Positions 3,608 through 53,448 of a DNA stretch of 64,000 nucleotides are shown here, piece by piece. Made by a program: the position numbers and the translations under genes. The DNA is from Thalassotalea sp. (GTDB lineage Bacteria; Pseudomonadota; Gammaproteobacteria; Enterobacterales; Alteromonadaceae): assembly GCA_051251725.1 (NCBI GenBank), contig JBPOFN010000018.1, forward strand, positions 15,811 through 79,810, given 5' to 3'. The notes below the pieces were generated by a model that saw nothing but the letters and a program-made list of their open reading frames with translations, ran no database searches and had not been told where the DNA came from. Positions within the stretch are counted from its first letter, which is position 1. Each line of letters opens with the position of its first letter.

Positions 3608-3840
3608 CGCCTTACTTAGAAACCTCAGTTGGATTGGCTACCTAACATGAATGAAGGTGTTATATTTATTATTGTTATTAGCTTATTGTCGTGACATAGC
3701 TAAAGTGTTTCATTTAAATATCAAATATTACGAATATATTTATAATTTTATTTAAGGCTATTTTAATTATTCGATAGTTATAGACTTTTCATTAAAAGAT
3801 TTTTATTGTTTATTATAGGTAATAAAACACAGGTGTAAAG

Positions 3841-19523: not shown

Positions 19524-22500
19524 ATGTTCGTGAATGTTATGAAAAGTGAAACAATAAAACCTTACTTTTTTATCGTCAGCTTGTTAAGTGTTGTCCTTGC
19601 CGGCGGTGTACTTGCAATAGTCACTATTTTATCACCTTTAGATGGTGTTTCGGGCGAGGGCGTATTACGATTTTTTGGTCGTTTTCACCCCTTAGTATTA
19701 CATTTTCCAATTACTTTATTGGTGCTTGCTTTAGGTTTTGAATTATTACGGTTTTTATCTAAGCCTTGGGCTCGTTGGTCAGCTATTGGTCTTCCTTTGC
19801 TTGTATTAGCTGTGATCACCGCTTGTATAACGGCAACACTTGGTGTGTTGTTGGCTGCGAATGAAGGGCATATGGGAGCACTGGTTGAAAGACATCGATT
19901 ATTAGGTATTTCTGTTGCTGTTCTGGCTATCCTAGCATTAGGTTTACGTTGGTTATCAGCTAAAGTTAAGTCAAAGCAAAGCAGTTTACGGTTAACTTCT
20001 TTAGCGACATTATCGCTTACTTGTTTTGTGATGATGATCGCTGCCCATGATGGCGGCAGTATGGTTCATGGTGCAAGTTATTTATCGCAATACGCGCCAG
20101 CGCCATTAAAAAGTCTATTAACACCTTCGTCAGTTGTTAAACATTCACCTGACGAAGCAAAGAGTTTATCTTCAGCAAAGTCACCTAATTCAGAGAAACT
20201 AAATACAGAAATACTAAATACTTATCATCACGATATTGCGCCTATTCTCGAGCGTAACTGTAGTAGTTGTCATGGTGACAGTAAACAAAAAGCAGGCATT
20301 CGGTTTGATCAACTTAGTCCTGCAATGGAAACTGATCATGAAGTTGAACTGTGGTCGTCTGTTCGTGATGCGCTAAATTCTCATCAAATGCCGCCCAAAG
20401 AAGAAGGGCGTCAACCGAGTAGTGCCGATCGGCAAAAAATTGTCAACTGGATTGGCACGGCATTTAATCAAGTTGCTAAACAGCGTTTGGATAAAAGAGT
20501 GTCGCCAATGAGAAGGCTGACAGTCAATGAATACCAGCATACGCTGCAAGATTTATTTAGCACAGAATTCACGTTTGGGGCGAACTTACCCTCAGCTCCG
20601 ATATCAGAACATGGCTATTCACGCGATGCTAAACTGGTTAGCGTATCGGCCTTAGAGCTTGAGTACTTTTTAGATATCGCTCGCGAGAGTGTTGAAAATT
20701 ATGTCATTTTTGGAGAACGGTTACCTGAAATCGAACATTTTTTAATTGAGTTTGAAGATGTCAAATATCGCCCAGGTGTCGATGGTGGGTATTCGGTTGA
20801 TAAGCCTTTAACTGCACAAGCGCTAGCTAAAAAACGTCAAGCTAGAGAGCCAAATCCGGTGGTTTATTCGCCAAGAACACTATTCCCGCTACCTGATGGC
20901 CCCGCTTTAGCGAGCACTTTATTGCAGCGTTCGGTATTACAAAAGTTCAATGGGCAATATGCCAAGTTTAAGAGTAATCAACCTCACCAAGCTGGCGAGA
21001 TGATTGTCAGAGTGCATGCTGCAGCAAAAAAAGGCGATGACGGCTCTGTTCCGCGTTTACGGTTTATATCAGGCAACCCCGAAAGTGCTGGTTTTAAAGG
21101 TCCTATCGCTGGTGAATGCGACGTCACCGCCACGGTTGATAATCCACAAATTTGTACTTTCCGATTACCACTGAGATCATTGCCGGTTGATTTTGGTGAA
21201 AAAGGCAAGCTACTTCAGTTTTTTGTTTTTAATGTGTCTCATGATCCCGATGCCATTTTTGATATTGTGCCAGAGGGCTTGAACTTTCACCCTAAAAGAC
21301 GTGGCTTAATGTCGCGTTATCGTAAGAGCCAAGCAAAAGCGATTATTAGCAAGGCGACTATGCGTGAAGCTGGCGTCAATGAGCTGTATTTAGATGCGAT
21401 CGAAATTGATATTGTGCCGTTTGGCGCTGATATTGAAAATAGTGTTAATGCATTTCGAATTGATGCACTGCGTGCTAATCAAAATGGCGGAATTAATGCG
21501 CGAGAGGTAGCGCAGGAGTCGCTACAAGAATTTATGACACGAGCTTATCGCCGCTCAATATCCGCATCTGAATTGAACTCGATGCTTGCTTTATATGATC
21601 AGTTTATCAATGAAGGTGATAGCTTTGAGGGAGCGCTGAAAGAAACCTTTAGTACGGTGTTAGTGTCGGCGCCATTTTTATATGTTGTTGCTCCTTTAGC
21701 ACAAGAGGTTGCAGAGCAAATATCTGAAGAAGAACGTATTCAGTTCGCCGCCAGACTTTCTTACTTTCTGTGGAATGGCCCACCGGATGAACGTTTACGA
21801 GAGCTTGCCGCTCAAGATAAGCTTCGTGATCCTGGGTTACTTGCCGCTGAAGTCAATCGTATGTTGGCTGACGAAAGATCTCGTCGCTTTAGCAGTAATT
21901 TTGCAGAGGAGTGGTTACGCTTAGATAAATTTGATTTAGTGGCCGTTAACCCTGAGTTCTATCCTCGATATGATCAAGATTTGGGTAACGATATGGTTAA
22001 AGAAACTATTGCTACTTTCCAAGATATTTTTCATAACAATAAAGATAGCCGTGAACTGGTTGCCTCAGATACCGTGTACATAAATCAACGCTTAGCGCGT
22101 CATTATGGTTTACCTACAGTTGAAGGAGGCGAAATGCGTCCTGTTAAAGTACCTGATTATCGTACCCGAGGCGGGTTGCTACATCAGGCGTCGATTTTAA
22201 CTATGACAGCAGACGGCGCTGAGTCTAATCCTATTTATCGCGGGGTTTGGGTGTTAGAGCGTTTGTTAAATGATCCACCACCACCTCCACCGCCAGCAGT
22301 TCCTCCCCTTGATACGACAGCGGATGATTTTGCTTCATTGACCCTGAAACAAAAGATTGAGCTGCATAGAAAACAAAGTGCATGTTCGGCTTGTCACGCT
22401 AAAATTGATCCTTGGGGCATTGCCCTTGAGAATTTTGATGCGATAGGTGCATGGCGTGATGCATCTTTGATCATTAATGCCAATACCTCTGAACAGTCAT

Positions 22501-22847
22501 TTTTTCCTGTCGATAGTAGTACCGTTTTACCGACAGGTGAAGAAATTCAAGATTCAAAGGAGCTGATGAGTTATTTATTTAACGAACGAGCAGATGAATT
22601 CACTCATGCTTTAACGTGGCATATGATGACTTACGCTTTAGGACGTGAACCCAATTTAGGTGATGAAAAAGATTTAGAAACCATTCATAGCCACTTCCGC
22701 GCGTCAGGGTATAAATTATCGGCTTTAGTGTTAGCGATTATTCAGAGTGAAGCTTTTCAAGCCAACCCTGCTGTGAATGCAAAACCTAAGAATAAAGCTA
22801 AACCAAATACCTTACACACTCAAATTGACACCAGTCAAATTAAATAG
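19524..22847 (+). CDS. membrane-anchored cytochrome-c-motif protein of the DUF1587/DUF1595/DUF1592/DUF1588/DUF1585 (planctomycete PSCyt/PSD) architecture
   Basis: 1107 aa. The N-terminal ~190 aa contain five hydrophobic helices with conserved His (FGRFHPLVLHFPI, AAHDGGSMVHG; DUF2231-like). Then come CSSCH (20259..20273), RRLTVNEYQHTLQDLF, AYRRSISASEL, ARLSYFLWNGPPDERL and FAEEWLRLD. These are followed by RGGLLHQASILTMTA..NPIYRGVWVLERLLNDPPPPPPP and CSACHAKIDPWGIALENFDAIGAWR (22383..). Confidence 0.85.
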   Translation: MFVNVMKSETIKPYFFIVSLLSVVLAGGVLAIVTILSPLDGVSGEGVLRFFGRFHPLVLHFPITLLVLALGFELLRFLSKPWARWSAIGLPLLVLAVITACITATLGVLLAANEGHMGALVERHRLLGISVAVLAILALGLRWLSAKVKSKQSSLRLTSLATLSLTCFVMMIAAHDGGSMVHGASYLSQYAPAPLKSLLTPSSVVKHSPDEAKSLSSAKSPNSEKLNTEILNTYHHDIAPILERNCSSCHGDSKQKAGIRFDQLSPAMETDHEVELWSSVRDALNSHQMPPKEEGRQPSSADRQKIVNWIGTAFNQVAKQRLDKRVSPMRRLTVNEYQHTLQDLFSTEFTFGANLPSAPISEHGYSRDAKLVSVSALELEYFLDIARESVENYVIFGERLPEIEHFLIEFEDVKYRPGVDGGYSVDKPLTAQALAKKRQAREPNPVVYSPRTLFPLPDGPALASTLLQRSVLQKFNGQYAKFKSNQPHQAGEMIVRVHAAAKKGDDGSVPRLRFISGNPESAGFKGPIAGECDVTATVDNPQICTFRLPLRSLPVDFGEKGKLLQFFVFNVSHDPDAIFDIVPEGLNFHPKRRGLMSRYRKSQAKAIISKATMREAGVNELYLDAIEIDIVPFGADIENSVNAFRIDALRANQNGGINAREVAQESLQEFMTRAYRRSISASELNSMLALYDQFINEGDSFEGALKETFSTVLVSAPFLYVVAPLAQEVAEQISEEERIQFAARLSYFLWNGPPDERLRELAAQDKLRDPGLLAAEVNRMLADERSRRFSSNFAEEWLRLDKFDLVAVNPEFYPRYDQDLGNDMVKETIATFQDIFHNNKDSRELVASDTVYINQRLARHYGLPTVEGGEMRPVKVPDYRTRGGLLHQASILTMTADGAESNPIYRGVWVLERLLNDPPPPPPPAVPPLDTTADDFASLTLKQKIELHRKQSACSACHAKIDPWGIALENFDAIGAWRDASLIINANTSEQSFFPVDSSTVLPTGEEIQDSKELMSYLFNERADEFTHALTWHMMTYALGREPNLGDEKDLETIHSHFRASGYKLSALVLAIIQSEAFQANPAVNAKPKNKAKPNTLHTQIDTSQIK

Positions 22848-22850
22848 GGG

Positions 22851-24236
22851 TTGATGATGAAACATATCAATGAACTTAACCGTAGAAAGCTTCTGAAACT
22901 TGGTTTAGGTGGCCTAGCATTGCCGCCACTGGCGTCGCTATTAGGTACTTCTAATTTAGCCCATGCTGATAACTTAGCATCGGCTACAGGCACGGCGACT
23001 AATAAACCCGTCAGGCTAGTGACTATCTTTTTCCCTAATGGTGTGTCATTACCACCAGAGAATGACGCTAGCTTTCCCGATTGGCATTGGTTTCCCCACA
23101 AAGCGGGTACGGACTACACCTTAACTAAATCACTTGAGCCGCTTTCGAAACATCGCAGTAATTTATCAATTTTGTCTGGTTTTTCTCATCCAGAGTTACG
23201 ATCGGTTGTGCCGCATAGCTGTGCCACCAAATGGCTCACGAGTACGGTACCACCTAAGGGTTCAAAAAATCTAATGAGTTTCGACCAAGTGTTTGCCGAG
23301 CAGATTGAAGGGGCGACACGATTTTCATCACTTGCTTTATCTGCTGCTGGAGGCGCCGGTAGTCTTGGCCGTCCGGCTACCTTGTCTGTTAACCGAAATG
23401 GCGCACTTATTCCGTCTTTGTCTGAGCCCAAACAAATATTTGATCGTTTGTTTTCGGTAGATTCTGGAGGGATAGAACAGCGTCGACGAGGTATTGTGCG
23501 TGATCGCACTATTCTCGACCGTATCAGCTCACAATTAAACCAAAGTAATGTTAGGGTTGGTTCAGAAGATAAAAGACATCTTGATGCTTATTTAAACGCA
23601 ACCCAGACGCTAGAAAAGCAATTAGCAAGAGCCAATGACTGGCTTGATGTGCCAAAACCAGAGGTTGATGCCAGGCTTTTTGATTTTGATTCAGAGCCAA
23701 CTCGCGATCTTGGCACAAACTATATGCGAACTATGTTTGACTTAATTCATATGGCACTGCTGACGGACTCAACTCGTGTTGTCACTTATCAAACGTCAAT
23801 GGAAAATGCGGGTGGGCGTGGTAATCAATTACCCTATGCAGCAGGTTTGTCGTTACATCATCATCAGTTAACTCACAGCGCGGCAAGAGATAAGGGCGGT
23901 TGGGAGCGTTGGGCTAAGTATGATCAATATTTAGCCGATCGTTTTTCTGAATTTTTGACCAAAATGGCAGACACACCGGATCCGTTAGCTGAGGGCAGTT
24001 TGCTTGATAATACGGTGGTGCTTTATGGCTGCGGTACCAGTAAAACCCATGTTGGCAGAAACTATCCGTTAATTGTTGCTGGTGGTAAAAACGTCGGCTT
24101 AAAACATGGTGCTTTCCATAAATTTGAAGAAGAACGCCCCTTTAGTGACGTACTACTAACGCTATTACAACAATTAGGGGTTGAAACAGACAGTTTTGGT
24201 GATAGTGAAAATATAGTTTCTGAGATTTTGGCGTAA
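22851..24236 (+). CDS. Tat-exported DUF1552 (HxxSH-motif) family protein
   Basis: 461 aa. Twin-arginine signal NRRKLLKLGLGGLALPPLASLL. Blocks VTIFFPNG, LSILSGFSHP, HHHQLTHS, TVVLYGCGTSKTH and PLIVAGG. It starts 3 nt after the upstream stop; the track start is TTG 22851 and there is an ATG at 22854. Confidence 0.85.
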   Translation: MMMKHINELNRRKLLKLGLGGLALPPLASLLGTSNLAHADNLASATGTATNKPVRLVTIFFPNGVSLPPENDASFPDWHWFPHKAGTDYTLTKSLEPLSKHRSNLSILSGFSHPELRSVVPHSCATKWLTSTVPPKGSKNLMSFDQVFAEQIEGATRFSSLALSAAGGAGSLGRPATLSVNRNGALIPSLSEPKQIFDRLFSVDSGGIEQRRRGIVRDRTILDRISSQLNQSNVRVGSEDKRHLDAYLNATQTLEKQLARANDWLDVPKPEVDARLFDFDSEPTRDLGTNYMRTMFDLIHMALLTDSTRVVTYQTSMENAGGRGNQLPYAAGLSLHHHQLTHSAARDKGGWERWAKYDQYLADRFSEFLTKMADTPDPLAEGSLLDNTVVLYGCGTSKTHVGRNYPLIVAGGKNVGLKHGAFHKFEEERPFSDVLLTLLQQLGVETDSFGDSENIVSEILA

Positions 24237-24238
24237 GC

Positions 24239-25585
24239 TTGATGGCTAAACAATTATTATTTTTATGGTGTTTAACGAGTTTATATTTTTCGGTATTGGG
24301 CTCCGTAGTTGCGCAAGAGTTTAGTTTTCCGTTTAAAGCATTATCAGAAGAACCGCCTTATTATCATGTGCGCTATCCAGCCTCAGATAAACCGGATGAA
24401 CTTGTTTTTGCTGTCAATTATACCGTTTGGCTACCGCCTCAAGCTGAAAAAATTCGAGCGGTGATTGTCCATCAGCATGGTTGTGGTATTGGCGCTGCTT
24501 ACACAGGATTAACCGGTGCCTTTGATTTACATTGGCAGGCGCTAGCGAAAAAACATCAGGCAGCACTGTTAAGTGCGGCCTATGAACAAGCTAAAGGTAA
24601 ACCATGTCCAAACTGGGCCGAGCCACGCAATGGTTCTGAAGCTGTTTTTCTTAAAGCTTTAAAAGATTTAGCACTAAAATCAGGTCATGATGAATTAGCC
24701 TCAGCACCATGGGCGTTGTGGGGGCATAGTGGTGGTGCTGTTTGGGTTGGTGGAATGACCTTACTACATCCCGAACGAGTAGTCGCATTATGGATGCGCT
24801 CAGGCTCGTTTGACCTTCAGTCGGATTCCCAACCAGCCGGTGATGGCGTTTATTCACTAACGGATGATGCGTTGGCTGTACCTATCATGTTAAATCAGGG
24901 CCAAACGGAAGGTATTACAGATGCTACCAGTCGGCATGCGCATGTTTGGCCGCGAAACCAAAAAGTATTTCACGCGATACGTGGCAAAGGTGGTCTTATT
25001 GCTCATTCGGTGGATTTAATAAGCGAACATCAAAATGGCAATCAGCGCTATCTCGCTATTCCTTGGTTTGACGCTATTTTAAGTGCACGGTTGCCTAAAC
25101 ACGTTGGTGAGTCACTTCGAGACATGCCGGTTGACGATGTGTGGCTTGCGCCTTTATTAGGCGCTAAAGCTGTTCCTATGGCAGAATATAAAGAAGATAA
25201 AACCGCGGCTGTTTGGCTACCTAATAAAACCATCGCAAAAGCGTGGATGAGCTATATGCAAGACAATGCTGTTGCCGATATAACCCCACCACCAGCACCT
25301 AACAAGCTATTGATAAAAGATAATAAGTTAACATGGACGGCTGAAGCGGATCTTGAAAGTGGCTTGGCCTATTTTATCGTTGAACGTGATGGTAAATTCC
25401 TCGCTAAGGTCACAGGTAGTGATGTTAAAATGCTCGGCCGTACGATTTTTCAAACCCTCTACAACAGTGATTCACCCAGACAACCCTTACCTAAAATGAA
25501 ATTTACCGATACTACGGCGGTAACAGGCCAAACATATAAATATCGGGTGATTACAGTTAATACGGTAGGTTTAAAATCAAACTAA
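24239..25585 (+). CDS. secreted alpha/beta-hydrolase (serine esterase candidate) with C-terminal fibronectin-III-like domain
   Basis: 448 aa with a signal peptide. AVIVHQHGCG and nucleophile elbow LWGHSGGAVW. The C-terminal PPPAPNKLLIKDNKLTWTAEADLESGLAYFIVERDG...YKYRVITVNTVG is FN3-like. It starts 2 nt after the DUF1552 stop. Confidence 0.75.
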   Translation: MMAKQLLFLWCLTSLYFSVLGSVVAQEFSFPFKALSEEPPYYHVRYPASDKPDELVFAVNYTVWLPPQAEKIRAVIVHQHGCGIGAAYTGLTGAFDLHWQALAKKHQAALLSAAYEQAKGKPCPNWAEPRNGSEAVFLKALKDLALKSGHDELASAPWALWGHSGGAVWVGGMTLLHPERVVALWMRSGSFDLQSDSQPAGDGVYSLTDDALAVPIMLNQGQTEGITDATSRHAHVWPRNQKVFHAIRGKGGLIAHSVDLISEHQNGNQRYLAIPWFDAILSARLPKHVGESLRDMPVDDVWLAPLLGAKAVPMAEYKEDKTAAVWLPNKTIAKAWMSYMQDNAVADITPPPAPNKLLIKDNKLTWTAEADLESGLAYFIVERDGKFLAKVTGSDVKMLGRTIFQTLYNSDSPRQPLPKMKFTDTTAVTGQTYKYRVITVNTVGLKSN

Positions 25586-25647
25586 TTACAGTTTGACACT
25601 AGATTTGATGCATTGTTAGGTATTGTGTACAGCATTATTAACAAAAA

Positions 25648-25678
25648 ATGAAACACTCTTTTAACTCATGACCAATAT
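25648..25678 (+). promoter_or_regulatory. diverged copy of conserved intergenic element (core ATGAAACA..ACT.ATGAC.AAT)
   Basis: atgaaacactcttttaactcatgaccaatat aligns with the cores at 53405.. and 56428.. (atgaaacagtctcacgactgatgacaatta / atgaaacagttttatacctgatgacaatta). It lies ~115-145 nt upstream of the start of 25792..29619. Confidence 0.4.
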
Positions 25679-25791
25679 ATAAAACAATAATAAATTAACC
25701 GTATCAAGGGTCGCAACATTCTTCAACTTATCTTGTGGGTAACGTTAGGGGAAAATTAAGTGACTGATATCAATTAGTGAAATAAAAGCGT

Positions 25792-28700
25792 ATGAATTTA
25801 AAAGAAATAATAAAACCTATCTCATTACTAATGAGCTTGGCCCTATTAATTATGATATTAGCCTTGTTAATACCTTTTAATGGTGTCAGTGGCGATGGCA
25901 TAACCCGTTTTTTCGGTCGGTTCCATGTATTGGTATTGCACTTTCCTATCACTTTAATAGTCTTGATACCTATATTAGAATTAGTGCAACGTAAAAAACA
26001 CCTTCAAAACGTAACCGACATTATTCTTTTAATTTGGTGGTTCGCAAGTATTTCAGCATTTATTACGGTATTGCTGGGCATGACTTTAGCTGCTAATGAA
26101 GGCTTCGATTTTGAAAAAATTCAATATCATTTAATTGCAGGTATTGTTGTCGCTATACTGACGTTTACTTGTACAGGGTTAAAGTATGTTATATCAAAAC
26201 GCGTTAATTCAAATACAAAGTTTGCGTCTACTAACCAAAAAAGCACGTCAATATTAACGACTTTTTACACTACATTGTCGGTAGTTTTATTATGTGCATT
26301 AATCATTGCTGCACATGCCGGCGGAAATTTGGTACATGGTGACACCTATTTAACACGTTATGCACCACAAGCGATTAAGTCATGGTTACCGGAAGAGAAA
26401 CAGGCTATCGATTTAAGCCAAGTCAAAGATCAGCATTTTGTTAAAAAGGTGCAGCCGTTAATCCAGCAATATTGTTTTAGCTGTCATGGTGATGATAAGC
26501 AAAAAGGCGGTATTCAGCTATCAGTACTAAACCCTGATTTTATTAATGGCCATGATGCACCCCAGTGGCATGGCGCATTAGATATGATCAACAGTGGAGA
26601 AATGCCACCAGCAAAAGAACAACAACCCAGTGATGAAGAAAGACAGATAATCGTTGATTGGTTAACGGGTGGTATTAAATTAGCAAAAGAGAGTAAAAAA
26701 GGTAAAAGCAAACAAGTTATTCAGCGATTAACCAAACAACAATATACTAATACCTTGCAAGACTTGTTGGACGTGAAGATAAACTTTGGCGTTGAACTGC
26801 CAGATGATCCGATATCTGAAATTGGTTTTAGCAATAATGCCGAGTTATTAAGCTCATCAACCTTACATTTAGAAACGTTTCAAAAGATTGCGCGCAATGC
26901 GCTAGAGCAAGCCATTAATATTGGCGAAAAGCCGCCAGTTCACCATTACCGCATGCATTTTGGTAAAGGGATTGGTAAAGGGCAGCCGAATACAACTTCT
27001 AGAGGCTACTTAGACTTACCCGTTAGCCAAGATGATTTTTTTGTTGAAATACTATCAGAAAATAACGAGGCTAAATCAGGTGAAAGTGTTGAAAAGTTAA
27101 AGAAATATTTCAGTGCAAGTATGCGTGGTTCTGATCCCAAAAGACTACAAATAAAAGAACAAGGTATTACTTTACTGTCGGCTTTACCACATAAAGAAAC
27201 AACGGAAGGCGGGCAATATGGTGCATGGCACGGTCCTTCACCTAATCTAGCGATGCAAATTAAGGATCAATATCCGAGTGAAGGCGCTTTTGCTATTCGA
27301 GTGAAAGCTTCTAAGGGGGAAACCTTTAATTTACCTTTGATCAATGCAACCTCATTAACGAATGCTAAGTCTCTGGTGAATTTAGATAAAAAAAAGGTTC
27401 CTAAAAAACAACCCAAAAATGGTAGAAACACGCTCGTATTAGCCAGCACTAAGTTTAAAAATGTTCAAGGTTTGGTTAAATCAAAAAATTTAGCAAGAAC
27501 GTTAATTCCTGATAATAGTAGTTCACATATTGCGGGCGAAATCACCGTGGACGTGCCTTATCGAGGCTCTGATTATTTTCAAATTGATCTGGTTCACCCT
27601 GAAGTGAGCGCTGACGCAATGAGCAGTATTACTTTAAGTATCAATGATGAGATAACCTTTAATTCCCCTATATTTCCCACAGGTAAAGCCAAGCCTGGTG
27701 AGTTAGTTACATCAAGTATTGGTATGGCTTATCTTATTCGCGATAAAAAAATAAAAGTAAGTATCAAAAGTGATGCTAATTTTTCAGGTTTTAGTGACAT
27801 AGTATTCACTAAAATTAATGGTGATAATGAGCATGTAAACTCATTAAAACTTGATTATTACGACAACAGTAAATTTGCTAATGCAAAAGCAGAATTAATC
27901 CCTTATATCGGCTCAAGAACAGATGACGGTATGGATTATAAAACCTTTAGTGACAGTGTCACCGTCACTAATAGTACAGAGCATGAAAAAATCTATAGCT
28001 TTTATGGCCGTTTAGAAAATTTGCCGATACCGCCTCATGGTACGCAAGGTAACCACATTACCAACAGTAGCCTTAAAGTGGGGTTGTGGAATCATAACTT
28101 AGTTAAAAAAGACACTGAATTGGGTAGTTCATTACATATTGATTATATTGAATTTGAAGCGCCATACTTTGAAAAATGGCCAAGTCAAACTCACCAAAAT
28201 ATTTTTATTGAATCAAATCAGTCAAACAAGACAAGCGAGCCAGAAGTTTATGCGAAAGAAGTTTTGCAAAACTTTATCACTAAGGCTTATCGAAGACCGG
28301 TAACGGAAGATGAACTTGCACTGTATATGAATTATTGGCTGGGTATTAAAGGTGATTATCCTGTTTTTGAAGAAAGCATTAAAGAAACGTTAGTCGCAGT
28401 ATTGTCGTCGACAAACTTTCTTTATTTAGCCGAGCCTGAACAAGATGAAATATTAGCGAATACCTCGCTTAAAGATGCTGATACAACACAGTCATCTGAG
28501 TCTTTAATTAGCAGTGTCATAGGTATTTCTACAGCTAATGCAAGTACGCAATCTATTGCCGAAAAAGGTAAGCCTAATAGCGAATATGCATTGGCGAGTC
28601 GCTTATCTTACTTTTTATGGAACTCACCGCCAGATGCTGAATTACTCAGCCTTGCTAAAACGGGGCAACTTTCTGCTCAGTTACCCCAACAAATTGAACG

Positions 28701-29619
28701 TTTGTTAGCTGATGATAAGGTGATGAGGTTTATCAAGGTTTTTACCCGTGAGTGGCTAAGACTTGATAGACAGCAAGGTCAAACCGTTGATGTGGCAACC
28801 TTTCCAGATTATACCCGTTTTGTAAAACAGGATATGGCGTTAGAAACGCAACACTTCTTTAAAACCTTGCTACAAGAAAACTTGTCAGTGTTAAATGTGA
28901 TAGATGCTGATTTTACAATGCTAAACCAAAATTTAGCCGAGTTTTATGGCATAGATACCGTATATGGTAGTCAATTTACCAAGGTTGCATTAAATGATGA
29001 AGATAAAACCCGCGGTGGTTTATTGTCTCAAGGTGCTTTTTTAACCGGCCATGCTGATGGTATCCATAGCCACCCAGTAAAACGTGCTGTTTGGCTGAAA
29101 GAGAAAATATTAGGTGATAAGCCCCCACCACCACCGCCGAATGTACCGGAGTTAGATCCTGAAACCCCAGGCTTTGAAAAACTGACTTTAAAGCAGCAGT
29201 TAGAATTACACCGTGATAAAGACTCTTGTCGAGACTGTCATGCCAAAATAGACCCTTATGGTGTCGTTTTTGAAAAGTATGACGCGGTTGGTCGCTTACG
29301 CCAAGCTTATAAAGGCAGAGATATCGATGATCATGTGATCTTACCTAATGGCACGCCAATATCCGGTGTGTCAGAAATAAAAGGCTATTTGATGAAGGAT
29401 CAAAAAGATCAAGTGGCGTTGTCAGTCATCAAACATTTATATGCTTATGCGCTAGGAAAAGAAGTGAGCTTCCATGATGAAGATGCACTTGAAGAAATCC
29501 TAGAAAAAACAAAAAAAGATCATTATCAAATGCAAACACTGATTAACGCCATTGTTGAAAGCTCTGCATTTGACTCTGTTCAACAAATTAACGCCAATAA
29601 AAATGAAAGCGAGGGATAA
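25792..29619 (+). CDS. second membrane-anchored cytochrome-c-motif DUF1587/1595/1592/1588/1585-architecture protein
   Basis: 1275 aa with the same layout as 19524..22847. His-rich 5-TM N-terminus (FGRFHVLVLHFPI, AAHAGGNLVHG), CFSCH (26473..26487), QRLTKQQYTNTLQDLL, AYRRPVTEDEL, SRLSYFLWNSPPDAEL and FTREWLRLD. These are followed by RGGLLSQGAFLTGHA..HPVKRAVWLKEKILGDKPPPPPP and CRDCHAKIDPYGVVFEKYDAVGRLR (29227..). It carries ~170 extra residues in the middle relative to copy 1. Confidence 0.85.
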   Translation: MNLKEIIKPISLLMSLALLIMILALLIPFNGVSGDGITRFFGRFHVLVLHFPITLIVLIPILELVQRKKHLQNVTDIILLIWWFASISAFITVLLGMTLAANEGFDFEKIQYHLIAGIVVAILTFTCTGLKYVISKRVNSNTKFASTNQKSTSILTTFYTTLSVVLLCALIIAAHAGGNLVHGDTYLTRYAPQAIKSWLPEEKQAIDLSQVKDQHFVKKVQPLIQQYCFSCHGDDKQKGGIQLSVLNPDFINGHDAPQWHGALDMINSGEMPPAKEQQPSDEERQIIVDWLTGGIKLAKESKKGKSKQVIQRLTKQQYTNTLQDLLDVKINFGVELPDDPISEIGFSNNAELLSSSTLHLETFQKIARNALEQAINIGEKPPVHHYRMHFGKGIGKGQPNTTSRGYLDLPVSQDDFFVEILSENNEAKSGESVEKLKKYFSASMRGSDPKRLQIKEQGITLLSALPHKETTEGGQYGAWHGPSPNLAMQIKDQYPSEGAFAIRVKASKGETFNLPLINATSLTNAKSLVNLDKKKVPKKQPKNGRNTLVLASTKFKNVQGLVKSKNLARTLIPDNSSSHIAGEITVDVPYRGSDYFQIDLVHPEVSADAMSSITLSINDEITFNSPIFPTGKAKPGELVTSSIGMAYLIRDKKIKVSIKSDANFSGFSDIVFTKINGDNEHVNSLKLDYYDNSKFANAKAELIPYIGSRTDDGMDYKTFSDSVTVTNSTEHEKIYSFYGRLENLPIPPHGTQGNHITNSSLKVGLWNHNLVKKDTELGSSLHIDYIEFEAPYFEKWPSQTHQNIFIESNQSNKTSEPEVYAKEVLQNFITKAYRRPVTEDELALYMNYWLGIKGDYPVFEESIKETLVAVLSSTNFLYLAEPEQDEILANTSLKDADTTQSSESLISSVIGISTANASTQSIAEKGKPNSEYALASRLSYFLWNSPPDAELLSLAKTGQLSAQLPQQIERLLADDKVMRFIKVFTREWLRLDRQQGQTVDVATFPDYTRFVKQDMALETQHFFKTLLQENLSVLNVIDADFTMLNQNLAEFYGIDTVYGSQFTKVALNDEDKTRGGLLSQGAFLTGHADGIHSHPVKRAVWLKEKILGDKPPPPPPNVPELDPETPGFEKLTLKQQLELHRDKDSCRDCHAKIDPYGVVFEKYDAVGRLRQAYKGRDIDDHVILPNGTPISGVSEIKGYLMKDQKDQVALSVIKHLYAYALGKEVSFHDEDALEEILEKTKKDHYQMQTLINAIVESSAFDSVQQINANKNESEG

Positions 29620-29624
29620 TAGTT

Positions 29625-30995
29625 ATGAATTTTATTAAAGGATTTACCTTAGACCGCCGTAGTTTTATTAAAGGTGCTGGTGTGGTTGCAAGCTTGCCTT
29701 ATCTAGAGTGTATGGCGCAATCAGGTTCAAAAGTGTCGACTAACGTTGGCCTACGCACCACTGCGCCTAAGCGTATGTGTTACATTTCTGTCCCTAACGG
29801 TGTTTCTTTACCCGGTGAAAACTCTGAATATAAAGAGTGGAATTGGTTTCCGTTTGGCGAAGGTGAAAATTATCAGTTCACCAATGTGTTATCTTCTTTA
29901 GCACCGTTTAAACAAGATATTTCAATTATTAGTGGCTTAAGCCACCCCAGATCAAGAAAGTTATTAGGCCATATTGCTGGCGATACTTTTTTAACCGGTG
30001 GTGATGTTCGCGCTGATTACAATAACAACATTTCCGCTGATCAGTTTGCTGCAGCTATTAAACAACACAATACCCGTTTTCCATCATTAACCTTATCTGC
30101 CGATGGTGGCGTTGGCTTTAAATCAAGAGCATCGACCCTGTCATTTAATGCTCGTGGTAATGCCATTCCCGCTGAACACAGCCATAGGCTAATATTCGAA
30201 CGTTACTTTTCACTAAACGGAAAAACCACTTCAGCAGAGCGAAGAAAAAGCTTACAGCGCGATCAAAAAGTGGTTGATTTATTACTTGAAGATGCCAAAC
30301 GTTTACAAAAAAAATTAGGTGCTAGCGACCGAGAAAAAATAACACAGCACTTAGACTCATTAAGTGATTTAGAAGCACAAATAAAGCGAAATGAAGCATG
30401 GCTTGATATTCCTTTAGCGAACTTTAATAGTGACCATATTGATTTAGCCGTTGATGCTAAAATTGATCCGCAAGCGTATATTCGTACGATGTTCGACTTA
30501 ATCGTTTTGGCTTTTCAGTTAGATTTAACTGAAGTGGTGTCTTATATGGTTTCTCGTGAAGATGGCATGGGATTGGGCGATGCTTACCCGAAAATTGCAT
30601 TAGGCTTAAAAAGTGGTCATCACAAAATTAGTCACGATAAAGCTACCGGCCATTGGCAAGAGTGGGGGCAATATGATCAATGGTTAGCGAGTCACTTTAG
30701 TTATTTTGTTGAACGCATGAAAAACACGGAAGACGGATTTGGCTCGTTATTAGACAATACCCAAATATTATATGGCAGCCCTTGTAGCACGACACATAAT
30801 GCACGTAACTGTCCATTGATCTTGGCTGGTGGAAAAAACATGGGCTTAACACACGGTAGCTTCCATAAATTTTCAGAAGACGTTCCTATGACTAATTTAT
30901 TTGTCAAAATGTTGCAGTCGGCTAGCGTGCCGACTAAAACATTTTCTGACAGTAATGAACATACAACAGGCTTAGAAAAACTGTTTTCAGTGTGA
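29625..30995 (+). CDS. second Tat-exported DUF1552 (HxxSH-motif) family protein
   Basis: 456 aa. Twin-arginine signal DRRSFIKGAGVVASL. Blocks CYISVPNG, ISIISGLSHP, GHHKISHD, TQILYGSPCSTTH and PLILAGG. RBS gaggga; it starts 5 nt after the upstream stop. Confidence 0.85.
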   Translation: MNFIKGFTLDRRSFIKGAGVVASLPYLECMAQSGSKVSTNVGLRTTAPKRMCYISVPNGVSLPGENSEYKEWNWFPFGEGENYQFTNVLSSLAPFKQDISIISGLSHPRSRKLLGHIAGDTFLTGGDVRADYNNNISADQFAAAIKQHNTRFPSLTLSADGGVGFKSRASTLSFNARGNAIPAEHSHRLIFERYFSLNGKTTSAERRKSLQRDQKVVDLLLEDAKRLQKKLGASDREKITQHLDSLSDLEAQIKRNEAWLDIPLANFNSDHIDLAVDAKIDPQAYIRTMFDLIVLAFQLDLTEVVSYMVSREDGMGLGDAYPKIALGLKSGHHKISHDKATGHWQEWGQYDQWLASHFSYFVERMKNTEDGFGSLLDNTQILYGSPCSTTHNARNCPLILAGGKNMGLTHGSFHKFSEDVPMTNLFVKMLQSASVPTKTFSDSNEHTTGLEKLFSV

Positions 30996-31076: not shown

Positions 31077-32417
31077 ATGGAATTAAACCAAACAGTCAGT
31101 GATAGCGAGCTTGTTAGTTCGACTGAAACAAAAGCAAAAACGCGGATTATTTCAGCCGGCTTAATATGGCCTTTTGTATTAATTACTGCCTGTTTTGCCT
31201 TATGGGGCGCAGCCAATAACATGACTGATTTGCTGGTGCCAGCCTTCCAAAAAGTACTGAGTATGAGCCAATTTCAGTCATCTTTCATTCAATCGGCTTT
31301 TTATGGTGCTTACTTTTGTATGGCGTTACCTGCGGCCTATTTAATTCAAAAATATAGTTATAAAAATGGCGTTTTAGTTGGCTTAAGTATTTATGCTATT
31401 GGCGCTATCTTATGTTATCCCGCTAGCCAAGCAATGAGCTTTGAGTATTTTTTAATTGCCTTTTATGTGTTTGCGGCAGGTTGCGCCATTTTAGAAACGG
31501 TAGCGGCTCCTTATATTATGACCATGGGGCCAGAAGAAACGGCGACTCAACGCATTAATTTAGCGCAAGCTTTTAATCCTATTGGGGTGTTAATGGGGGT
31601 GTTTTTAGGAAAAGAAGTGATCTTAAAAGGCTTAAATGAGGCAACTGAAGCCGATCGTGCTGCGATGACAGCCGATGCCTTAAGTGGTATTCAAGCACAA
31701 GAGCTTGGCAACGTAGTAACCGCTTACGTTATTGTGGCACTGGTTGCGATAAGTTTAGCGGCAATTATCTTTTTTACTCGCTTTCCAGCGGCTAAATCAG
31801 ATGACAAGTTTGGTAGTTTAAAAGCTTCTTTTAACCGTTTAAAAAGTAATAGCAACTGGAAATTTGCGGTAGTAACGCAGTTTTTTTATGTTGGCTGTCA
31901 AGTGGGCGTTTGGACGTATGCCATAAAATATATTATGGATAACTTGTCAGGCGTTACGAATGTTGCGGAAGCCGGTGACTATGTATTTTATGGTTTATGT
32001 GTTTACACTTGTTTCCGTTTTATCTGCACCTTTTTAATGAGTTACATCTGCCCAGCACGTTTATTAACGATTATGGCGAGCCTTGCTATTGGCTTAATTA
32101 CGGTTGCCGTTTTTGTCGGTGGTGACATTGGTACTTATGCCTTATTAGGTTGTTTTTCGTGTATGTCGTTAATGTTCCCAACTATTTATGGCTTAGGTTT
32201 AACAGGCGTAGGTGAAGATCGTAAACTGGGTGGCTCATTCATTATTATGGCCATTTTAGGTGGTGCTGTTTTAGTACCGCTTCAAGGTTGGATTATTGAT
32301 CAAACCAACAATGTTAATATGAGCTATTTATTACCGTTGTTCTGTTTTACAGTGGTACTTATATTCAGTATTTTTGCTCGTAAAAAAGAAGTTGCTGCTG
32401 GTTATGTCCACGACTAA
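31077..32417 (+). CDS. fucP: L-fucose:H+ symporter permease (FucP-family MFS transporter)
   Basis: 446 aa with ~12 TM helices. LWGAANNMTDLLVPAFQKV, IQSAFYGAYFCMALPAAYLIQKYSYKNG, ETVAAPYIMTMGPEETATQRINLAQAFNPIG closely parallel the E. coli FucP N-terminal half as I recall it. Confidence 0.85.
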   Translation: MELNQTVSDSELVSSTETKAKTRIISAGLIWPFVLITACFALWGAANNMTDLLVPAFQKVLSMSQFQSSFIQSAFYGAYFCMALPAAYLIQKYSYKNGVLVGLSIYAIGAILCYPASQAMSFEYFLIAFYVFAAGCAILETVAAPYIMTMGPEETATQRINLAQAFNPIGVLMGVFLGKEVILKGLNEATEADRAAMTADALSGIQAQELGNVVTAYVIVALVAISLAAIIFFTRFPAAKSDDKFGSLKASFNRLKSNSNWKFAVVTQFFYVGCQVGVWTYAIKYIMDNLSGVTNVAEAGDYVFYGLCVYTCFRFICTFLMSYICPARLLTIMASLAIGLITVAVFVGGDIGTYALLGCFSCMSLMFPTIYGLGLTGVGEDRKLGGSFIIMAILGGAVLVPLQGWIIDQTNNVNMSYLLPLFCFTVVLIFSIFARKKEVAAGYVHD

Positions 32418-32464: not shown

Positions 32465-32992
32465 ATGAATAAAGAACATCAATTATTTACTTCGTTTATT
32501 CGGCAGTATCAAGCCACATTGAGAAACTACATCCGTGGTTTGGGTGTATTTTCTCATGCGGTTGATGATATTGCCCAAGAGACGTTTATCGTTGCTTATA
32601 AAGAACTTGAAAAATTTGACCAAAGCTTAGATTTTGGTCATTGGCTTAAGGGCATCGCGAGAAATTTAGTTCGTAATGAAATTAGAAAAAATGCCCGTCA
32701 AGCCCGTATAATGAATGATAAATTGTCGTTATTTTTAATTGACTCATTTGAATTAAATTACGAAGCAACGGTTGGTGAACATCAAGAAATAGCGGCTTTG
32801 AACGAGTGCATAAATAACTTACCAATGAAAAGCAAAGAATTACTTAATTATAAATACCATAAAGAGCATGACAGCAAAGAAATTTCTACGGTTATAGGTA
32901 TGAGTGCTACTGCTATACGCTTATCTTTAATGCGCATTCGTCATAAATTAAAACATTGTATCGACTTTAGGTTGGGCTATGAGCAACGATAA
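32465..32992 (+). CDS. ECF-type RNA polymerase sigma-70 family factor
   Basis: 175 aa. Region-2-like VDDIAQETFIVAYKEL..WLKGIARNLVRNEIRK and region-4 HTH ISTVIGMSATAIRLSLMRIRHKLKHCI. Confidence 0.85.
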   Translation: MNKEHQLFTSFIRQYQATLRNYIRGLGVFSHAVDDIAQETFIVAYKELEKFDQSLDFGHWLKGIARNLVRNEIRKNARQARIMNDKLSLFLIDSFELNYEATVGEHQEIAALNECINNLPMKSKELLNYKYHKEHDSKEISTVIGMSATAIRLSLMRIRHKLKHCIDFRLGYEQR

Positions 32993-34676
32993 ACAAATTC
33001 AACGTTTCGAGGAATTACTTTCCTTGCTGCTTGATACGAGTTTAACAGGTGAGCAGTTTGAAGAATTAATAATACTGGCTGAACATGATGAAGCGCTTAA
33101 GGCGCAGTTACGTGATCAACTTAATATTGATCACTTGCTTTACCAAAATGCTGAATCAAAAGAAATTTTAGATACATTTGTTAACGCAACACTTGAACTA
33201 GCCGCTGTTCAAAAAACATCGAATGAATTTGAAACGAATATTATTACTGCTATTCGTAATGAAAAAAACAAGGTGTTAAATCGTAAAGCAAGTAAAAATA
33301 AGCTAAAAACATTTAAGCATTATTATTTCCCTTGGATATTGTCGGGTTTAAGCATGGCAGCTTGTGCTTTACTGTCGATTCAATATTTTCATTCGCCGAT
33401 TGACCCTTTCACCGAGCAAGATACTATTGCGGAGTATCAATACACTGGTGTAGCTGTGATAGCGAATGTGTTGAGCTTAGATCGAAGTTCCCCCTTTAAA
33501 ACGGGTGATATTGTGCAAGCAGGTGAACTAATAGTTTCACACGGTTTTCTTGAGTTGGAATTTTATCGTGGTGCTCAATTAAAAATCGCAGGTCCAACAA
33601 CAATTAACATCATTGATGAAGAGCATATTCAATTACTTAGCGGTAAAGTAATGACAGATGTACCTAAAGTGGCTATTGGTTTTACTATAGACACACCAAA
33701 CAGTGAAATTATTGATTTAGGCACTGAAATTGGCGTAGAAGTATTACCCAACGGACAGTCAAATGTTCATGTGTTTGAGGGGTTGGTCGAAGCAAGAAGT
33801 AAACAAGGTGATAGCCAATTAATTGAAAAAGATCAGGCGGTTAAATTTTCTGGCCAATCAAAATCCAGTTGGTTTAATAGCCCTACATTAGCCAATGACT
33901 TTGCAGAATTTAAACAAATTGATGATTTAACAGGAAACGCGGTAAACGTTAAGCATCAAAAATGGTTACTCAGTAAAAACAATATTTTAAAAAATCCAAA
34001 TTTAGTTACTTATTATGATTTTGAACCCGATTCCCAAAGTCCTAGAGTACTTAATAACCTTTCTAAATACGGAAATGACCATAATGGCGCAATTGTTGGT
34101 GCACAGTGGAGTGATGGCCCATGGAAAGGAAAACATGCCTTAAACTTTAAACAAGCAAGTGATCGGGTCAGAATTGATATTGATAATAAACTTACCAATT
34201 TTACCTTGGCAGCTTGGGTACAAATAGATAGTTTAGATAGAAAGTTCAATTCAATTTTATTAACAGATGGTTTTTCGCCGGGCGATATACATTGGCAAAT
34301 ATCTAATTTTAGTGCCAAACCTAAAGCTGCTGGATCAATGGTGTTGGGTTTAAAATCATTAAAAAACGGTAGTAAAAATTATCGATATGCACCATTTTTT
34401 ACACCAGAGGAGTCTGGTACTTGGTATCATTTAGTGATGCGTTTTTATTATGAGAGTGACATGCTTGCGATGTTTATTAATGGCGAGAAAGTTAAAGAAA
34501 CTAAAATAACTAATCCTTCTAAATATTGGCAAATAGGCTCCGCTTCTATTGGGAATTGGGATAATACCAATACCATTAATCCCTTAAGAAATTTAAACGG
34601 TAGTATAGCTGAGATGGTGATTTTTAGTAGTGCACTTGATGATAATGATATTAAAACACTAGCTTTAACTGATTAA
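32979..34676 (+). CDS. membrane anti-sigma factor, FecR-like domain + C-terminal LamG/ConA-like domain
   Basis: 565 aa. The ATG at 32979 overlaps the sigma gene stop (32990..32992) by 14 nt. One TM (YYFPWILSGLSMAACALLSIQYF). FecR-like block HGFLELEFYRGAQLKIAGPTTINII..LLSGKVMTDV..FTIDTPNSEIIDLGTEIGVEV. LamG-like NGAIVGAQWSDGPWKGKHALNF..FTLAAWVQIDSLDRKFNSILL. Confidence 0.8.
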   Translation: MSNDKQIQRFEELLSLLLDTSLTGEQFEELIILAEHDEALKAQLRDQLNIDHLLYQNAESKEILDTFVNATLELAAVQKTSNEFETNIITAIRNEKNKVLNRKASKNKLKTFKHYYFPWILSGLSMAACALLSIQYFHSPIDPFTEQDTIAEYQYTGVAVIANVLSLDRSSPFKTGDIVQAGELIVSHGFLELEFYRGAQLKIAGPTTINIIDEEHIQLLSGKVMTDVPKVAIGFTIDTPNSEIIDLGTEIGVEVLPNGQSNVHVFEGLVEARSKQGDSQLIEKDQAVKFSGQSKSSWFNSPTLANDFAEFKQIDDLTGNAVNVKHQKWLLSKNNILKNPNLVTYYDFEPDSQSPRVLNNLSKYGNDHNGAIVGAQWSDGPWKGKHALNFKQASDRVRIDIDNKLTNFTLAAWVQIDSLDRKFNSILLTDGFSPGDIHWQISNFSAKPKAAGSMVLGLKSLKNGSKNYRYAPFFTPEESGTWYHLVMRFYYESDMLAMFINGEKVKETKITNPSKYWQIGSASIGNWDNTNTINPLRNLNGSIAEMVIFSSALDDNDIKTLALTD

Positions 34677-53394: not shown

Positions 53395-53448
53395 TTCAAC
53401 GTTTATGAAACAGTCTCACGACTGATGACAATTAGAAGTGTTAACTAA
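53395..53448 (+). promoter_or_regulatory. conserved 54-bp intergenic element, copy upstream of beta-helix/PDZ gene
   Basis: ttcaacgtttatgaaacagtctcacgactgatgacaattagaagtgttaactaa matches 56418..56471 at 46/54 positions by hand alignment, with no gaps. Confidence 0.6.

Follow-up and report, generated by a model that had tools for sequence, protein, structure and literature searches.

The window analyzed here, 64,000 nt of DNA from Thalassotalea sp. to which all coordinates refer, carries two pairs of genes, A1-B1 and A2-B2, which share one orientation and lie about 1.5 kb apart within an island of fucoidan-degrading genes. In each pair the A gene encodes a large membrane-anchored protein of the "planctomycete cytochrome" type (Pfam families PSCyt and PSD) with two CxxCH motifs, and the B gene encodes a DUF1552 protein with a signal for the twin-arginine translocation (Tat) pathway. 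A and B form an obligate, translationally coupled and conserved unit, and sequence comparison indicates that the two pairs are two old lineages of one module and not the products of a tandem duplication. B is modeled with the fold of the sulfatase/alkaline-phosphatase superfamily and lacks the sulfatase catalytic residues. The reading that we tentatively prefer, as a possibility held short of conviction, is that A and B together make up a respiratory-chain-wired periplasmic metalloenzyme carrying out redox-linked sugar processing.

The two genes of each pair nearly abut. The TAG stop codon of A1 ends at position 22847 and B1 can be read from TTG 22851 or from ATG 22854 or 22857, giving a gap of 3–9 nt; A2 ends at 29619, with a gap of 5 nt before the ATG of B2 at 29625, and the GAGGGA Shine-Dalgarno sequence of B2 sits inside the last codons of A2. 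One scan of species-representative genomes yielded 80 loci from 80 species of Alteromonadales, Flavobacteriia, Cytophagia, Alphaproteobacteria, Verrucomicrobiota, and Planctomycetota, in which the B protein is 54–71% identical to B2 (B2-type loci). An A gene lies directly upstream of B in 77 of them, and the other three start at a contig end. A first-pass annotation of the window had described two such paired units of near-abutting genes, and both were recovered with exactly the same coordinates in a six-frame list of open reading frames (ORFs). Also borne out by the analyses presented below were the five N-terminal membrane helices it had assigned to each A protein, its four CxxCH sites (at 20259, 22383, 26473, and 29227), its order of the domains DUF1587/1595/1592/1588/1585, which a Pfam search recovered, and, in the B proteins, its twin-arginine signals and its histidine cluster of the HxxSH type.

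Both B proteins match the Pfam family DUF1552/HXXSHH (PF07586), with a gathering threshold of 30 bits, at 222 bits (E 1.6e-65, B1) and 246 bits (E 8.9e-73, B2); the family comprises 15,359 clusters at 50% identity. Their N-termini, DRRSFIKGAGVVASLPYL and NRRKLLKLGLGGLALPPL, contain the twin-arginine motifs NRRKLLK in B1 and DRRSFIK in B2, followed by a hydrophobic stretch, as in Tat substrates. The arginine pair is retained in 93–95% of the 127 diverse DUF1552 members from which a family profile was built, mostly representatives of 50%-identity clusters sharing <50% identity. The Pfam TAT_signal model scores below its threshold on B2 (16.8 vs 22.7 bits), and at E values up to 10 it is recovered in 34 of 40 B homologs. 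From the twin-arginine signal, B is predicted to be exported in folded form via the Tat pathway.

An AlphaFold2 model of B2 (pLDDT 79.7, pTM 0.81) was compared with the PDB by Foldseek, and the top 50 matches all belong to the alkaline-phosphatase superfamily (best E 2.3e-5, probability 1.0), including S1 sulfatases, choline sulfatase, LtaS, EptA, and YejM. At the level of sequence profiles, hhalign aligned the 127-member DUF1552 profile with a profile of 43 sulfatases drawn from the loci fetched for this work (numbered with the prefix L below) at a probability of 83% and an E value of 8.5e-6, with 359 columns in register and the same order in both families from strand 1 through the C-terminal core. 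A Pfam scan of 40 B homologs at E values up to 10 returned no family of the alkaline-phosphatase clan. In the profile alignment the sulfatase motif C-x-P-x-R-x-x-x-L-T-G falls on G115-H116-I-A-G-D-T-F-L-T-G of B2 (L123-T124-G125); the formylglycine motif C/S-x-P-x-R is absent from DUF1552, the column being occupied by Gly, Ala, or Asp in the family. The Asp-Asp that follows strand 1 in sulfatases is aligned to V-P-N-G, and the T-S-D-H-G ligands to G-S-P-C-S and then to T390-H391, of which only H391 is conserved. Another candidate for a sulfatase-like nucleophile, S106 in S106-H-P-x-x-R, was rejected, as it occurs in only 43 of the 127 members and hhalign places the formylglycine motif nine residues further on.

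DUF1552 has an invariant residue set of its own. H116, D139, D235, H333, and H337 (B2 numbering) are found in 127/127 members, H391 in 126, and D218 and E250 in 99%; the histidine clusters read HHHQLTH in B1 and HHKISH in B2. Judged from the model, B has a sulfatase/alkaline-phosphatase-superfamily fold without the catalytic residues of a sulfatase, and four histidines and one aspartate (H116, D139, H333, H337, and H391), which look like a metal site in the conserved sequence, replace the formylglycine/aspartate set. The vague likeness to alkaline phosphatases and sulfatases on which the first-pass annotation had speculated has thus held for the fold and failed for the classical metal site, since CxPxR, DD, and SDHG are all missing. 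A long helical hairpin (aa 204–260 of B2), modeled at low confidence, contains D218, D235, and E250 and would fit a partner-binding surface. It is also worth mentioning that residue 303 of B2, beside the conserved D300 and T302, is Glu in all Alteromonadales B2-type proteins compared and Arg in 120 of the 127 diverse members, B1 included, a fixed lineage-specific change.

The A proteins share the Pfam order DUF2231, PSCyt1/Cytochrome_CBB3, PSD3 (DUF1587), PSD5 (DUF1595), PSD4 (DUF1592), PSCyt3 (DUF1588), and PSD2 (DUF1585). The PSD and PSCyt3 domains match with E values of 1e-13 to 1e-40, and PSCyt3, PSD4, PSD2, PSD3, and PSD5 are all above threshold in both proteins, which places A1 and A2 in group III of He et al. 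(2017). The N-terminal DUF2231 domain (PF09990, cut-off 26.4 bits) scores 36.5–40.5 bits in A1 and stays below the cut-off in A2 (19.3 bits for the whole protein, 23.6 bits for the N-terminal 200 aa), where the membrane region aligns to that of A1 at 38% identity, all histidine motifs included. Hydropathy gives five hydrophobic helices in both proteins, and the AlphaFold2 model of A1 (mean pLDDT 87.1, pTM 0.79) places them at residues 13–36, 60–77, 82–114, 119–147, and 149–182. The database version of A2 (P0186, 1251 aa) starts 24 codons downstream, which removes most of the first membrane helix; reading from ATG 25792 restores the five-helix domain as in A1. Six histidines of A1 (H55, H60, H116, H124, H175, and H182) are kept in 23–25 of 25 homologs that have the membrane domain, and positive-inside loops together with the A1 model put all six at the periplasmic ends of helices 2–5. 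Among A2-type proteins the membrane domain is present in 9/9 from Gammaproteobacteria, 47/47 from Bacteroidota, 4/4 from Verrucomicrobiota, and the single complete one from Alphaproteobacteria. One homologous DUF2231 region gave a sub-threshold match to prokaryotic cytochrome b561 (E 0.0075), which is a hint only, and a stand-alone DUF2231-PSCyt1 protein exists in L007.

The PSCyt1 region that follows is, by its sequence features, predicted to be a bona fide class-I c-type cytochrome domain. Cytochrome_CBB3 scores 29.2 and 30.6 bits in the two A proteins against a cut-off of 27, and PSCyt1 aligns its CxxCH and MP(P) motifs with the heme domains of QcrC and CcoP. Conservation of CxxCH and MPP reaches 90% or more in diverse A proteins, and CxxCH…MPP, the His/Met signature, is found in 72 of 72 complete A2-type proteins. 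The second CxxCH, near the C-terminus, is as strictly kept: H-x5-CxxCH-x3-DP occurs in 71 of the 72, and C954, C957, H958, D962, and P963 (A1 numbering) are invariant in 46/46 diverse A homologs. The motifs start at residues 246 and 954 of A1 and 228 and 1146 of A2. In A2 the cysteines outside the membrane helices are confined to these two motifs; A1 has one additional periplasmic pair, C532/C544.

Between the cytochrome and the C-terminal all-alpha part lies a lineage-specific beta-sandwich that in the A1 model looks like a carbohydrate-binding jelly roll and fits a variable substrate-recognition part. A Foldseek search of the PDB with the full A1 model gave no match at E <0.01; the weak matches obtained were to jelly-roll and carbohydrate-binding-type domains (BcsB, the CocE C-domain, meprin MAM, and isomaltodextranase). 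Other members of the A family have a Laminin_G_3 or a CBM2 domain in this position, the latter in a DUF1592 protein from a straw-degrading metasecretome (PMC6004670, Table 1).

The two pairs have the same architecture, are co-oriented and close together, and other arrays of two A-B pairs exist, so that both could be proposed to have arisen from a single ancestral pair by local tandem duplication and later divergence; the first-pass annotation had in fact called the module tandemly duplicated. Such an origin is extremely improbable, as it is contradicted by the closer kinship of each pair to orthologs elsewhere. BLASTP aligns A1 with A2 at 38% identity in the N-terminal 380 aa and at 35% in the C-terminal 480 aa, with middle parts that cannot be aligned, and B1 and B2 are 38% identical, in agreement with the same annotation's remark that the paralogs are old and clearly diverged. 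Counterparts of A1 that are 60–79% identical occur in Shewanella sp. 10N.7, a Litorimonas metagenome-assembled genome (MAG), and metagenomes, and others, 62–67% identical and without the membrane domain, in Stieleria, Fuerstiella, and Opitutaceae. B1 and B2 belong to separate 50%-identity clusters, with the representatives P0197 (70% identical to B1) and P0063 (57% identical to B2). The B2-type lineage, 54–88% identical, extends over Gamma- and Alphaproteobacteria, Bacteroidota, Verrucomicrobiota, and Planctomycetota; B2 itself has a 100% identical counterpart in a Thalassotalea sp. MAG. The closest relatives of A2-B2, on a metagenomic contig (83%) and in Psychrosphaera (77%), are followed by a gene of the major facilitator superfamily (MFS) and have no adjoining A1-B1. 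Two different A-B pairs stand in tandem in L084 (a Planctomycetia MAG) and L091 (a metagenome), which points to a recurrent stacking of distinct lineages.

The two lineages differ in their neighborhoods. B1-type pairs were sampled in seven other loci, L004 (Shewanella) and the metagenomic L005 and L088–L092, with B 68–88% identical. S1 sulfatases are present in all seven, most also carry genes for GH141-like proteins, GH29 glycoside hydrolases, or TonB receptors, and GH95 and GH172 recur. An 82–83% identical ortholog of the sulfatase encoded at 37246–39066 is found in three of them (L004, L005, and L088), in two directly after B1, and an ortholog (65–81%) of the GH141-like protein encoded at 40802–43045 lies directly upstream of A, divergently oriented in L004 and L005 and co-directional in L090. 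An A1-type pair of an Opitutaceae MAG (L095) is likewise situated among sulfatases, GH43 genes, and TonB receptors, and a planctomycete one (L096) directly follows a gene for a PQQ_2-like propeller.

B2-type loci bear a different stamp. A sugar transporter is encoded no more than 3.5 kb downstream in 35 of the 80, 29 being FucP-like MFS proteins and six ABC transporters with a monosaccharide-type binding protein; 21/80 have a sulfatase gene within 10 kb, and only 3/80 a GH29, GH95, or GH141-like gene. The MFS neighbor in Wenyingzhuangia, the sole flavobacterial copy scanned, is a fucP equivalog (495 bits vs a cut-off of 280). The order A2-B2-(fucP)-sigma-antisigma, in which sigma is an extracytoplasmic function (ECF) sigma factor, is kept in Saccharobesus, Paraglaciecola, Agaribacter, Aliiglaciecola, Psychrosphaera, and Gayadomonas, the last without fucP; the sigma/anti-sigma pair is present in 8/80 loci overall. 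In Flavobacteriia a hybrid two-component regulator often precedes the pair, which is followed by fucP, a MauG/MbnH-like di-heme enzyme, and a PQQ_2-like propeller. These redox neighbors are met in 5/80 (MauG/MbnH-like) and 16/80 (PQQ_2-like) of the B2-type loci. The propeller, an uncharacterized protein, was seen together with the MauG/MbnH-like enzyme near pairs of the flavobacterial L002/L018, L020, L058, L059, and L070. In Cyclobacteriaceae/Flammeovirgaceae (L074–L076, L080, and L085) a PSCyt2/PSD1 (group II) protein is encoded directly after the B2-type pair, and no recognizable DUF1501 partner gene follows it. The first-pass annotation had argued for a dedicated role of both pairs in the processing or sensing of sulfated fucan. 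This agrees with the sulfatases in 7/7 loci for pair 1 and fits pair 2 poorly, given the scarcity of fucoidan hydrolase genes around its relatives and a transporter in 35/80.

For pair 2 a regulator can also be proposed. A candidate ECF promoter, TGAAACA-N14-GACCA, precedes A2, and the pattern TGAAACA-N13-15-GACMW has four exact copies in the window (Table 1) against 0.09 expected, a number reached by none of 100 shuffled sequences. The half-site TGAAAC stands 67–105 nt upstream of A2-type genes in eight other Alteromonadales loci with the ECF pair, six of which have the full pattern; before A2 and these A2-type genes the bipartite motif takes the general form TGAAACA-N13-15-(T)GACAA, 67–144 nt from the start codon. 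The fetched loci, about 1.8 Mb in total, contain only ten exact copies, of which six occupy the expected position ahead of A2-type genes. The motif is absent upstream of the A2-type gene in L093, which has no ECF pair, and no exact copy precedes A1. The AAC-containing upstream element resembles an ECF −35 box. Only the exact pattern is informative, as a search allowing two mismatches gave 14 hits against 9.7 expected, which is noise; a scan of 18–37 kb for sigma-70 promoters and terminators, with counts equal to those of shuffled sequences, was uninformative. A2-B2 is probably transcribed from an ECF-type promoter under its own sigma factor and lectin-domain anti-sigma factor. In the simplest reading of these sequences, the sigma factor encoded at 32465–32992 would drive the A2-B2-fucP-sigma-antisigma operon and several fucoidan enzymes upon glycan binding by the anti-sigma factor.

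Table 1. Genes, protein parts, and candidate promoter motifs of the two A-B modules and their surroundings (window positions)
Feature	Position (nt)	Strand	Residues (aa)	Description
A1	19524..22847	+	1107	membrane-anchored group-III "planctomycete cytochrome" protein; six-frame ORF list
A1 membrane/His domain	19560-20069		13-182	
A1 class-I cytochrome c	CSSCH at 20259-20273		221-323	
A1 beta-sandwich			~394-646	
A1 all-alpha PSD5-PSD4-PSCyt3-PSD2	motif at 22365-22412		648-1079	motif H948-x5-CSACH-AKI-DP
B1	22851..24236	+	461 (from TTG)	Tat-signal DUF1552 protein; likely start ATG 22854 or 22857
Esterase-like ORF	24239..25585	+		directly after B1; secreted, alpha/beta-hydrolase-like; GHSGG motif; N-terminal signal helix
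A2	25792..29619	+	1275	A1 paralog of the same architecture; larger middle insert, aa ~390-805
A2 CxxCH sites	26473-26487; from 29227			CFSCH; CRDCH-AKI-DP
B2	29625..30995	+	456	Tat-signal DUF1552 protein
FucP	31077..32417	+		L-fucose:H+ symporter; NCBIfam TIGR00885, 431 bits vs cut-off 280.4
ECF sigma factor	32465..32992	+		NCBIfam TIGR02989 (Rhodopirellula/Verrucomicrobium family), 134 bits vs cut-off 124.55
FecR-type anti-sigma factor	32979..34676	+		C-terminal Laminin_G_3 (lectin-like) sensor domain; Pfam
S1 sulfatase	37246..39066	-		Pfam; orthologs beside A1-B1-type pairs
GH141-like beta-helix protein	40802..43045	-		Pfam; orthologs directly upstream of A1-type genes elsewhere
Promoter motif	25649-25674	+		144 nt upstream of A2
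Promoter motif	53406-53431	+		before beta-helix/PDZ gene
Promoter motif	56429-56454	+		before sulfatase-GH29 genes (operon)
Promoter motif	3686-3712	-		before small signal-peptide ORF and BD-FAE esterase

The fucoidan setting claimed for the window at the outset was found again by Pfam: around the pairs lie genes for GH95, a SASA esterase, two GH29, three sulfatase-family ORFs, two GH141-like beta-helix proteins, a TonB-dependent receptor, and GH172. The esterase-like ORF behind B1 has no Pfam domain and a weak NCBIfam match (1.8e-5) to esterases of the polyhydroxyalkanoate-depolymerase type; no counterpart was found next to B1 orthologs in the other loci, and it is locus-specific and outside the conserved A-B module. 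A recent insertion of pair 1 together with this ORF, considered because of their higher GC content (0.43–0.44), was rejected, as GC at third codon positions is within the spread of the window. Between a gene of the F5/8-type-C family and A1 there is an AT-rich stretch of 1.44 kb (18083–19523) without any ORF of at least 100 aa, unusually long for an otherwise tightly packed island. A GGDEF diguanylate cyclase gene (39350–40453, minus strand) separates the sulfatase from the GH141-like gene, and GGDEF genes also flank the A2-type modules of Paraglaciecola, Agaribacter, and Psychrosphaera. Additionally, the island contains a gene for a 3-keto-disaccharide hydrolase (DUF1080; 9367–10248) and one for a protein combining DUF7133, cytochrome c, and F5/8-type-C domains (10315–12918), named "PVC-type heme-binding CxxCH protein" in NCBIfam after the Planctomycetes–Verrucomicrobia–Chlamydiae (PVC) group. 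The same families, as a trio of 3-keto-disaccharide hydrolase, cytochrome c, and DUF7133 genes, stand directly upstream of the A1-type pair in L095. These genes suggest that the island has a second oxidative route for sugars that is linked to a cytochrome. The ECF sigma factor, PSCyt, and DUF7133 genes all represent families typical of PVC bacteria, here in a gammaproteobacterium.

In the reading that we tentatively prefer, A and B would form a periplasmic two-subunit metalloenzyme, with B as the catalytic, metal-loaded subunit. A would anchor B at the membrane, place it on the glycan through the beta-sandwich, and link its metal center to the respiratory chain via two c-hemes and the histidine-rich membrane domain. 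The chemistry would be redox-linked sugar processing instead of hydrolytic desulfation. Pair 1 may act on sulfated fucan or its oligosaccharides, beside the sulfatases and GH141-like enzymes, and pair 2 on a small fucose-containing product just ahead of its import by FucP. A redox role is placed first because the sulfatase nucleophile is lost, the cytochrome features are strictly conserved, and Tat export is nearly universal in the family. It also fits the recurrent periplasmic redox neighbors and a distribution reported in an earlier survey, where PSCyt gene density is inverse to that of glycoside hydrolases and high in oxic-layer genomes (PMC5615132). A narrower proposal, that DUF1552 is a sulfatase scaffold repurposed as a redox-active, His-ligated metalloenzyme that is fed or drained by the two c-hemes of its partner, we regard as unlikely.

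Several results weigh against this redox-linked metalloenzyme. The Foldseek TM-scores of B2 are only 0.31–0.40, a single sulfatase aligned with a shallow DUF1552 profile by hhalign gave no match, and sequence searches of the PDB with both proteins and both family profiles returned only weak cytochrome c matches to PSCyt1; the fold assignment of B thus comes from one model and one profile–profile match. A non-redox Zn or Mn hydrolase would account equally well for a His/Asp site on a sulfatase-type fold. Neither Foldseek nor sequence and profile searches matched the all-alpha domain of A to a PDB entry, so the CxxCH of this domain is read as a heme site from the motif itself. The membrane domain is present in only two of 11 planctomycete A2-type proteins and is also missing from A1-type proteins of the PVC group, which means that a quinone link is not essential to the module. 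In roughly half of the B2-type loci no transporter or carbohydrate gene is close by, and full-text literature searches by family name brought up no functional study of either family.

The foremost alternative is a non-redox hydrolase, B being a divergent metal-dependent sulfo- or phosphoesterase or transferase, A its anchor and glycan scaffold, and the CxxCH motifs structural, regulatory, or heme-free. The sulfatase-superfamily fold of B, the constant company of canonical sulfatases around B1-type pairs, and the beta-sandwich of A would all suit it, and the HxxxH and T/S-H motifs of B presumably resemble the Zn-ligand motifs of alkaline phosphatase and nucleotide pyrophosphatase/phosphodiesterase. 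We find it doubtful, if a serious contender, as no nucleophile position is conserved in the family (neither S106 nor the formylglycine column), near-universal Tat export is unusual for sulfatases, and a complete class-I cytochrome with its Met ligand motif in every one of the 72 complete proteins is hard to explain as decoration.

It could also be supposed that A is mainly a membrane-bound cytochrome c, a conduit taking electrons from other sugar dehydrogenases of the periplasm to the respiratory chain, with B as an accessory or assembly subunit. The PQQ_2-like propellers adjoining pairs of both lineages speak for this, as do the DUF7133, cytochrome c, and 3-keto-hydrolase genes near a pair in the window and in L095, the stand-alone DUF2231-PSCyt1 protein, and the cytochrome b561 hint. 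Such dehydrogenase-like neighbors are, however, missing from most loci (the 3-keto hydrolase is found in 1/80 and the propeller in the 16 mentioned), about 800 aa of A beyond the cytochrome domain would be left without a role, and B is a strictly co-inherited partner with an invariant, catalytic-looking site of its own, which makes the conduit quite unlikely. Very unlikely, finally, is a sensor that detects a fucan-derived ligand or redox state and signals to the adjacent ECF sigma/anti-sigma pair. The sigma factor and its lectin-domain anti-sigma are indeed adjacent and co-oriented in Alteromonadales and some Verrucomicrobiota, but the idea is weakened by A having no cytoplasmic output domain beyond short loops and by the restriction of the ECF pair to the eight B2-type loci and to a single one among the seven further B1-type loci, there on the opposite strand. 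Furthermore, the anti-sigma factor has its own Laminin_G_3 sensor domain, and the promoter motif before A2 speaks for A2-B2 being controlled by the sigma factor rather than feeding into it.

Among described systems the nearest are the group III PSCyt3/PSD plus DUF1552 pairs of Planctomycetes and Verrucomicrobia. He et al. 2017 (PMC5615132) note that PSCyt3 genes usually adjoin DUF1552 genes and report that they have no known function, which is in line with the first-pass view of these families as uncharacterized adjacent pairs. The Thalassotalea pairs share with them the Pfam families and their order, the adjacency of the genes, and inserts of carbohydrate-binding type. They differ in the gammaproteobacterial host, in the five-helix DUF2231 domain, which PVC A1-type proteins and 9/11 planctomycete A2-type proteins lack, and in the presence of two lineages side by side inside a TonB-receptor-type fucoidan locus. 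The PSCyt1/PSCyt2/PSD1 plus DUF1501 modules, of unknown function and with a proposed role in "electron transport" (Kamneva et al. 2012, PMC3542564), similarly combine a CxxCH multidomain protein with lectin-type inserts and a Tat-signal partner. The Pfam families of both partners are different; the C-terminus of A1 has a weak sub-threshold match to PSD1 (E 0.041), and no DUF1501 gene was found in the 96 fetched loci.

With S1 sulfatases B shares the core fold, the register of secondary structure, and the LTG and NT-x-V/I-x-Y/F-G/T-S blocks; it is distinguished from them by its own invariant His/Asp set in place of C/S-x-P-x-R, DD, and SDHG, by the hairpin insert 204–260, and by a Tat instead of a Sec signal. 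Two further likenesses are drawn purely as analogies of ours. One is to MsrPQ-type systems, where a membrane heme protein feeds a periplasmic catalytic subunit and a His-rich membrane domain is likewise combined with a Tat-exported, cofactor-bearing partner encoded next to it; the folds are unrelated, the membrane domain of A is fused to a cytochrome c and glycan-binding-like domains, and heme b in it is putative. The other is to lytic polysaccharide monooxygenases (LPMOs) with cytochrome donors, such as the CBM2 electron-transfer proteins of Cellvibrio, in which a carbohydrate-binding module and a cytochrome serve a His-ligated metal enzyme attacking recalcitrant polysaccharide, with electrons supplied by the cytochrome. 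Unlike LPMOs, the A-B module has no histidine-brace fold, is periplasmic and membrane-anchored rather than secreted, and has no oxidative products on record.

PSCyt/PSD and DUF1552 have been listed as families for some two decades and are attributed to Studholme et al. 2004. Every part of the module already has a Pfam family, and NCBI names the proteins "DUF1592/DUF1552 domain-containing". The present analysis adds a division into two lineages that differ in context, a link to fucP that crosses phyla, the predicted fold with its missing sulfatase residues, the predicted periplasm-facing histidine cluster, and a candidate ECF regulon. Polysaccharide degraders of marine and fresh waters carry these families in vastly expanded numbers, and the neighboring genes for fucose transport and sulfatases open the module to experiment. 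The handles are the substrate contexts (sulfatase-rich fucoidan loci for one lineage, a place upstream of a fucose transporter for the other), a probable regulator and promoter, and residues for mutation; cultured carriers include Saccharobesus litoralis, Paraglaciecola aquimarina, Gayadomonas joobiniege, Shewanella sp. 10N.7, and Wenyingzhuangia spp. In S. litoralis the relevant region is at about 2.71–2.73 Mb of CP026604, the P. aquimarina strain is KCTC 32108, Shewanella sp. 10N.7 represents the B1 type, and W. aestuarii is among the Wenyingzhuangia carriers. Should the redox-linked reading be true, an oxidative, respiration-linked step would be added to models of algal-glycan turnover in the ocean. 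Should DUF1552 moreover prove to be a repurposed sulfatase scaffold, thousands of PSCyt/DUF1552 pairs, perhaps together with the PSCyt2/DUF1501 pairs, would represent a respiratory-chain-coupled, non-hydrolytic periplasmic route for sulfated and deoxy sugars, a further class of enzymes beside glycoside hydrolases, lyases, sulfatases, and LPMOs, in which pair 2 would carry out the final step ahead of fucose import.

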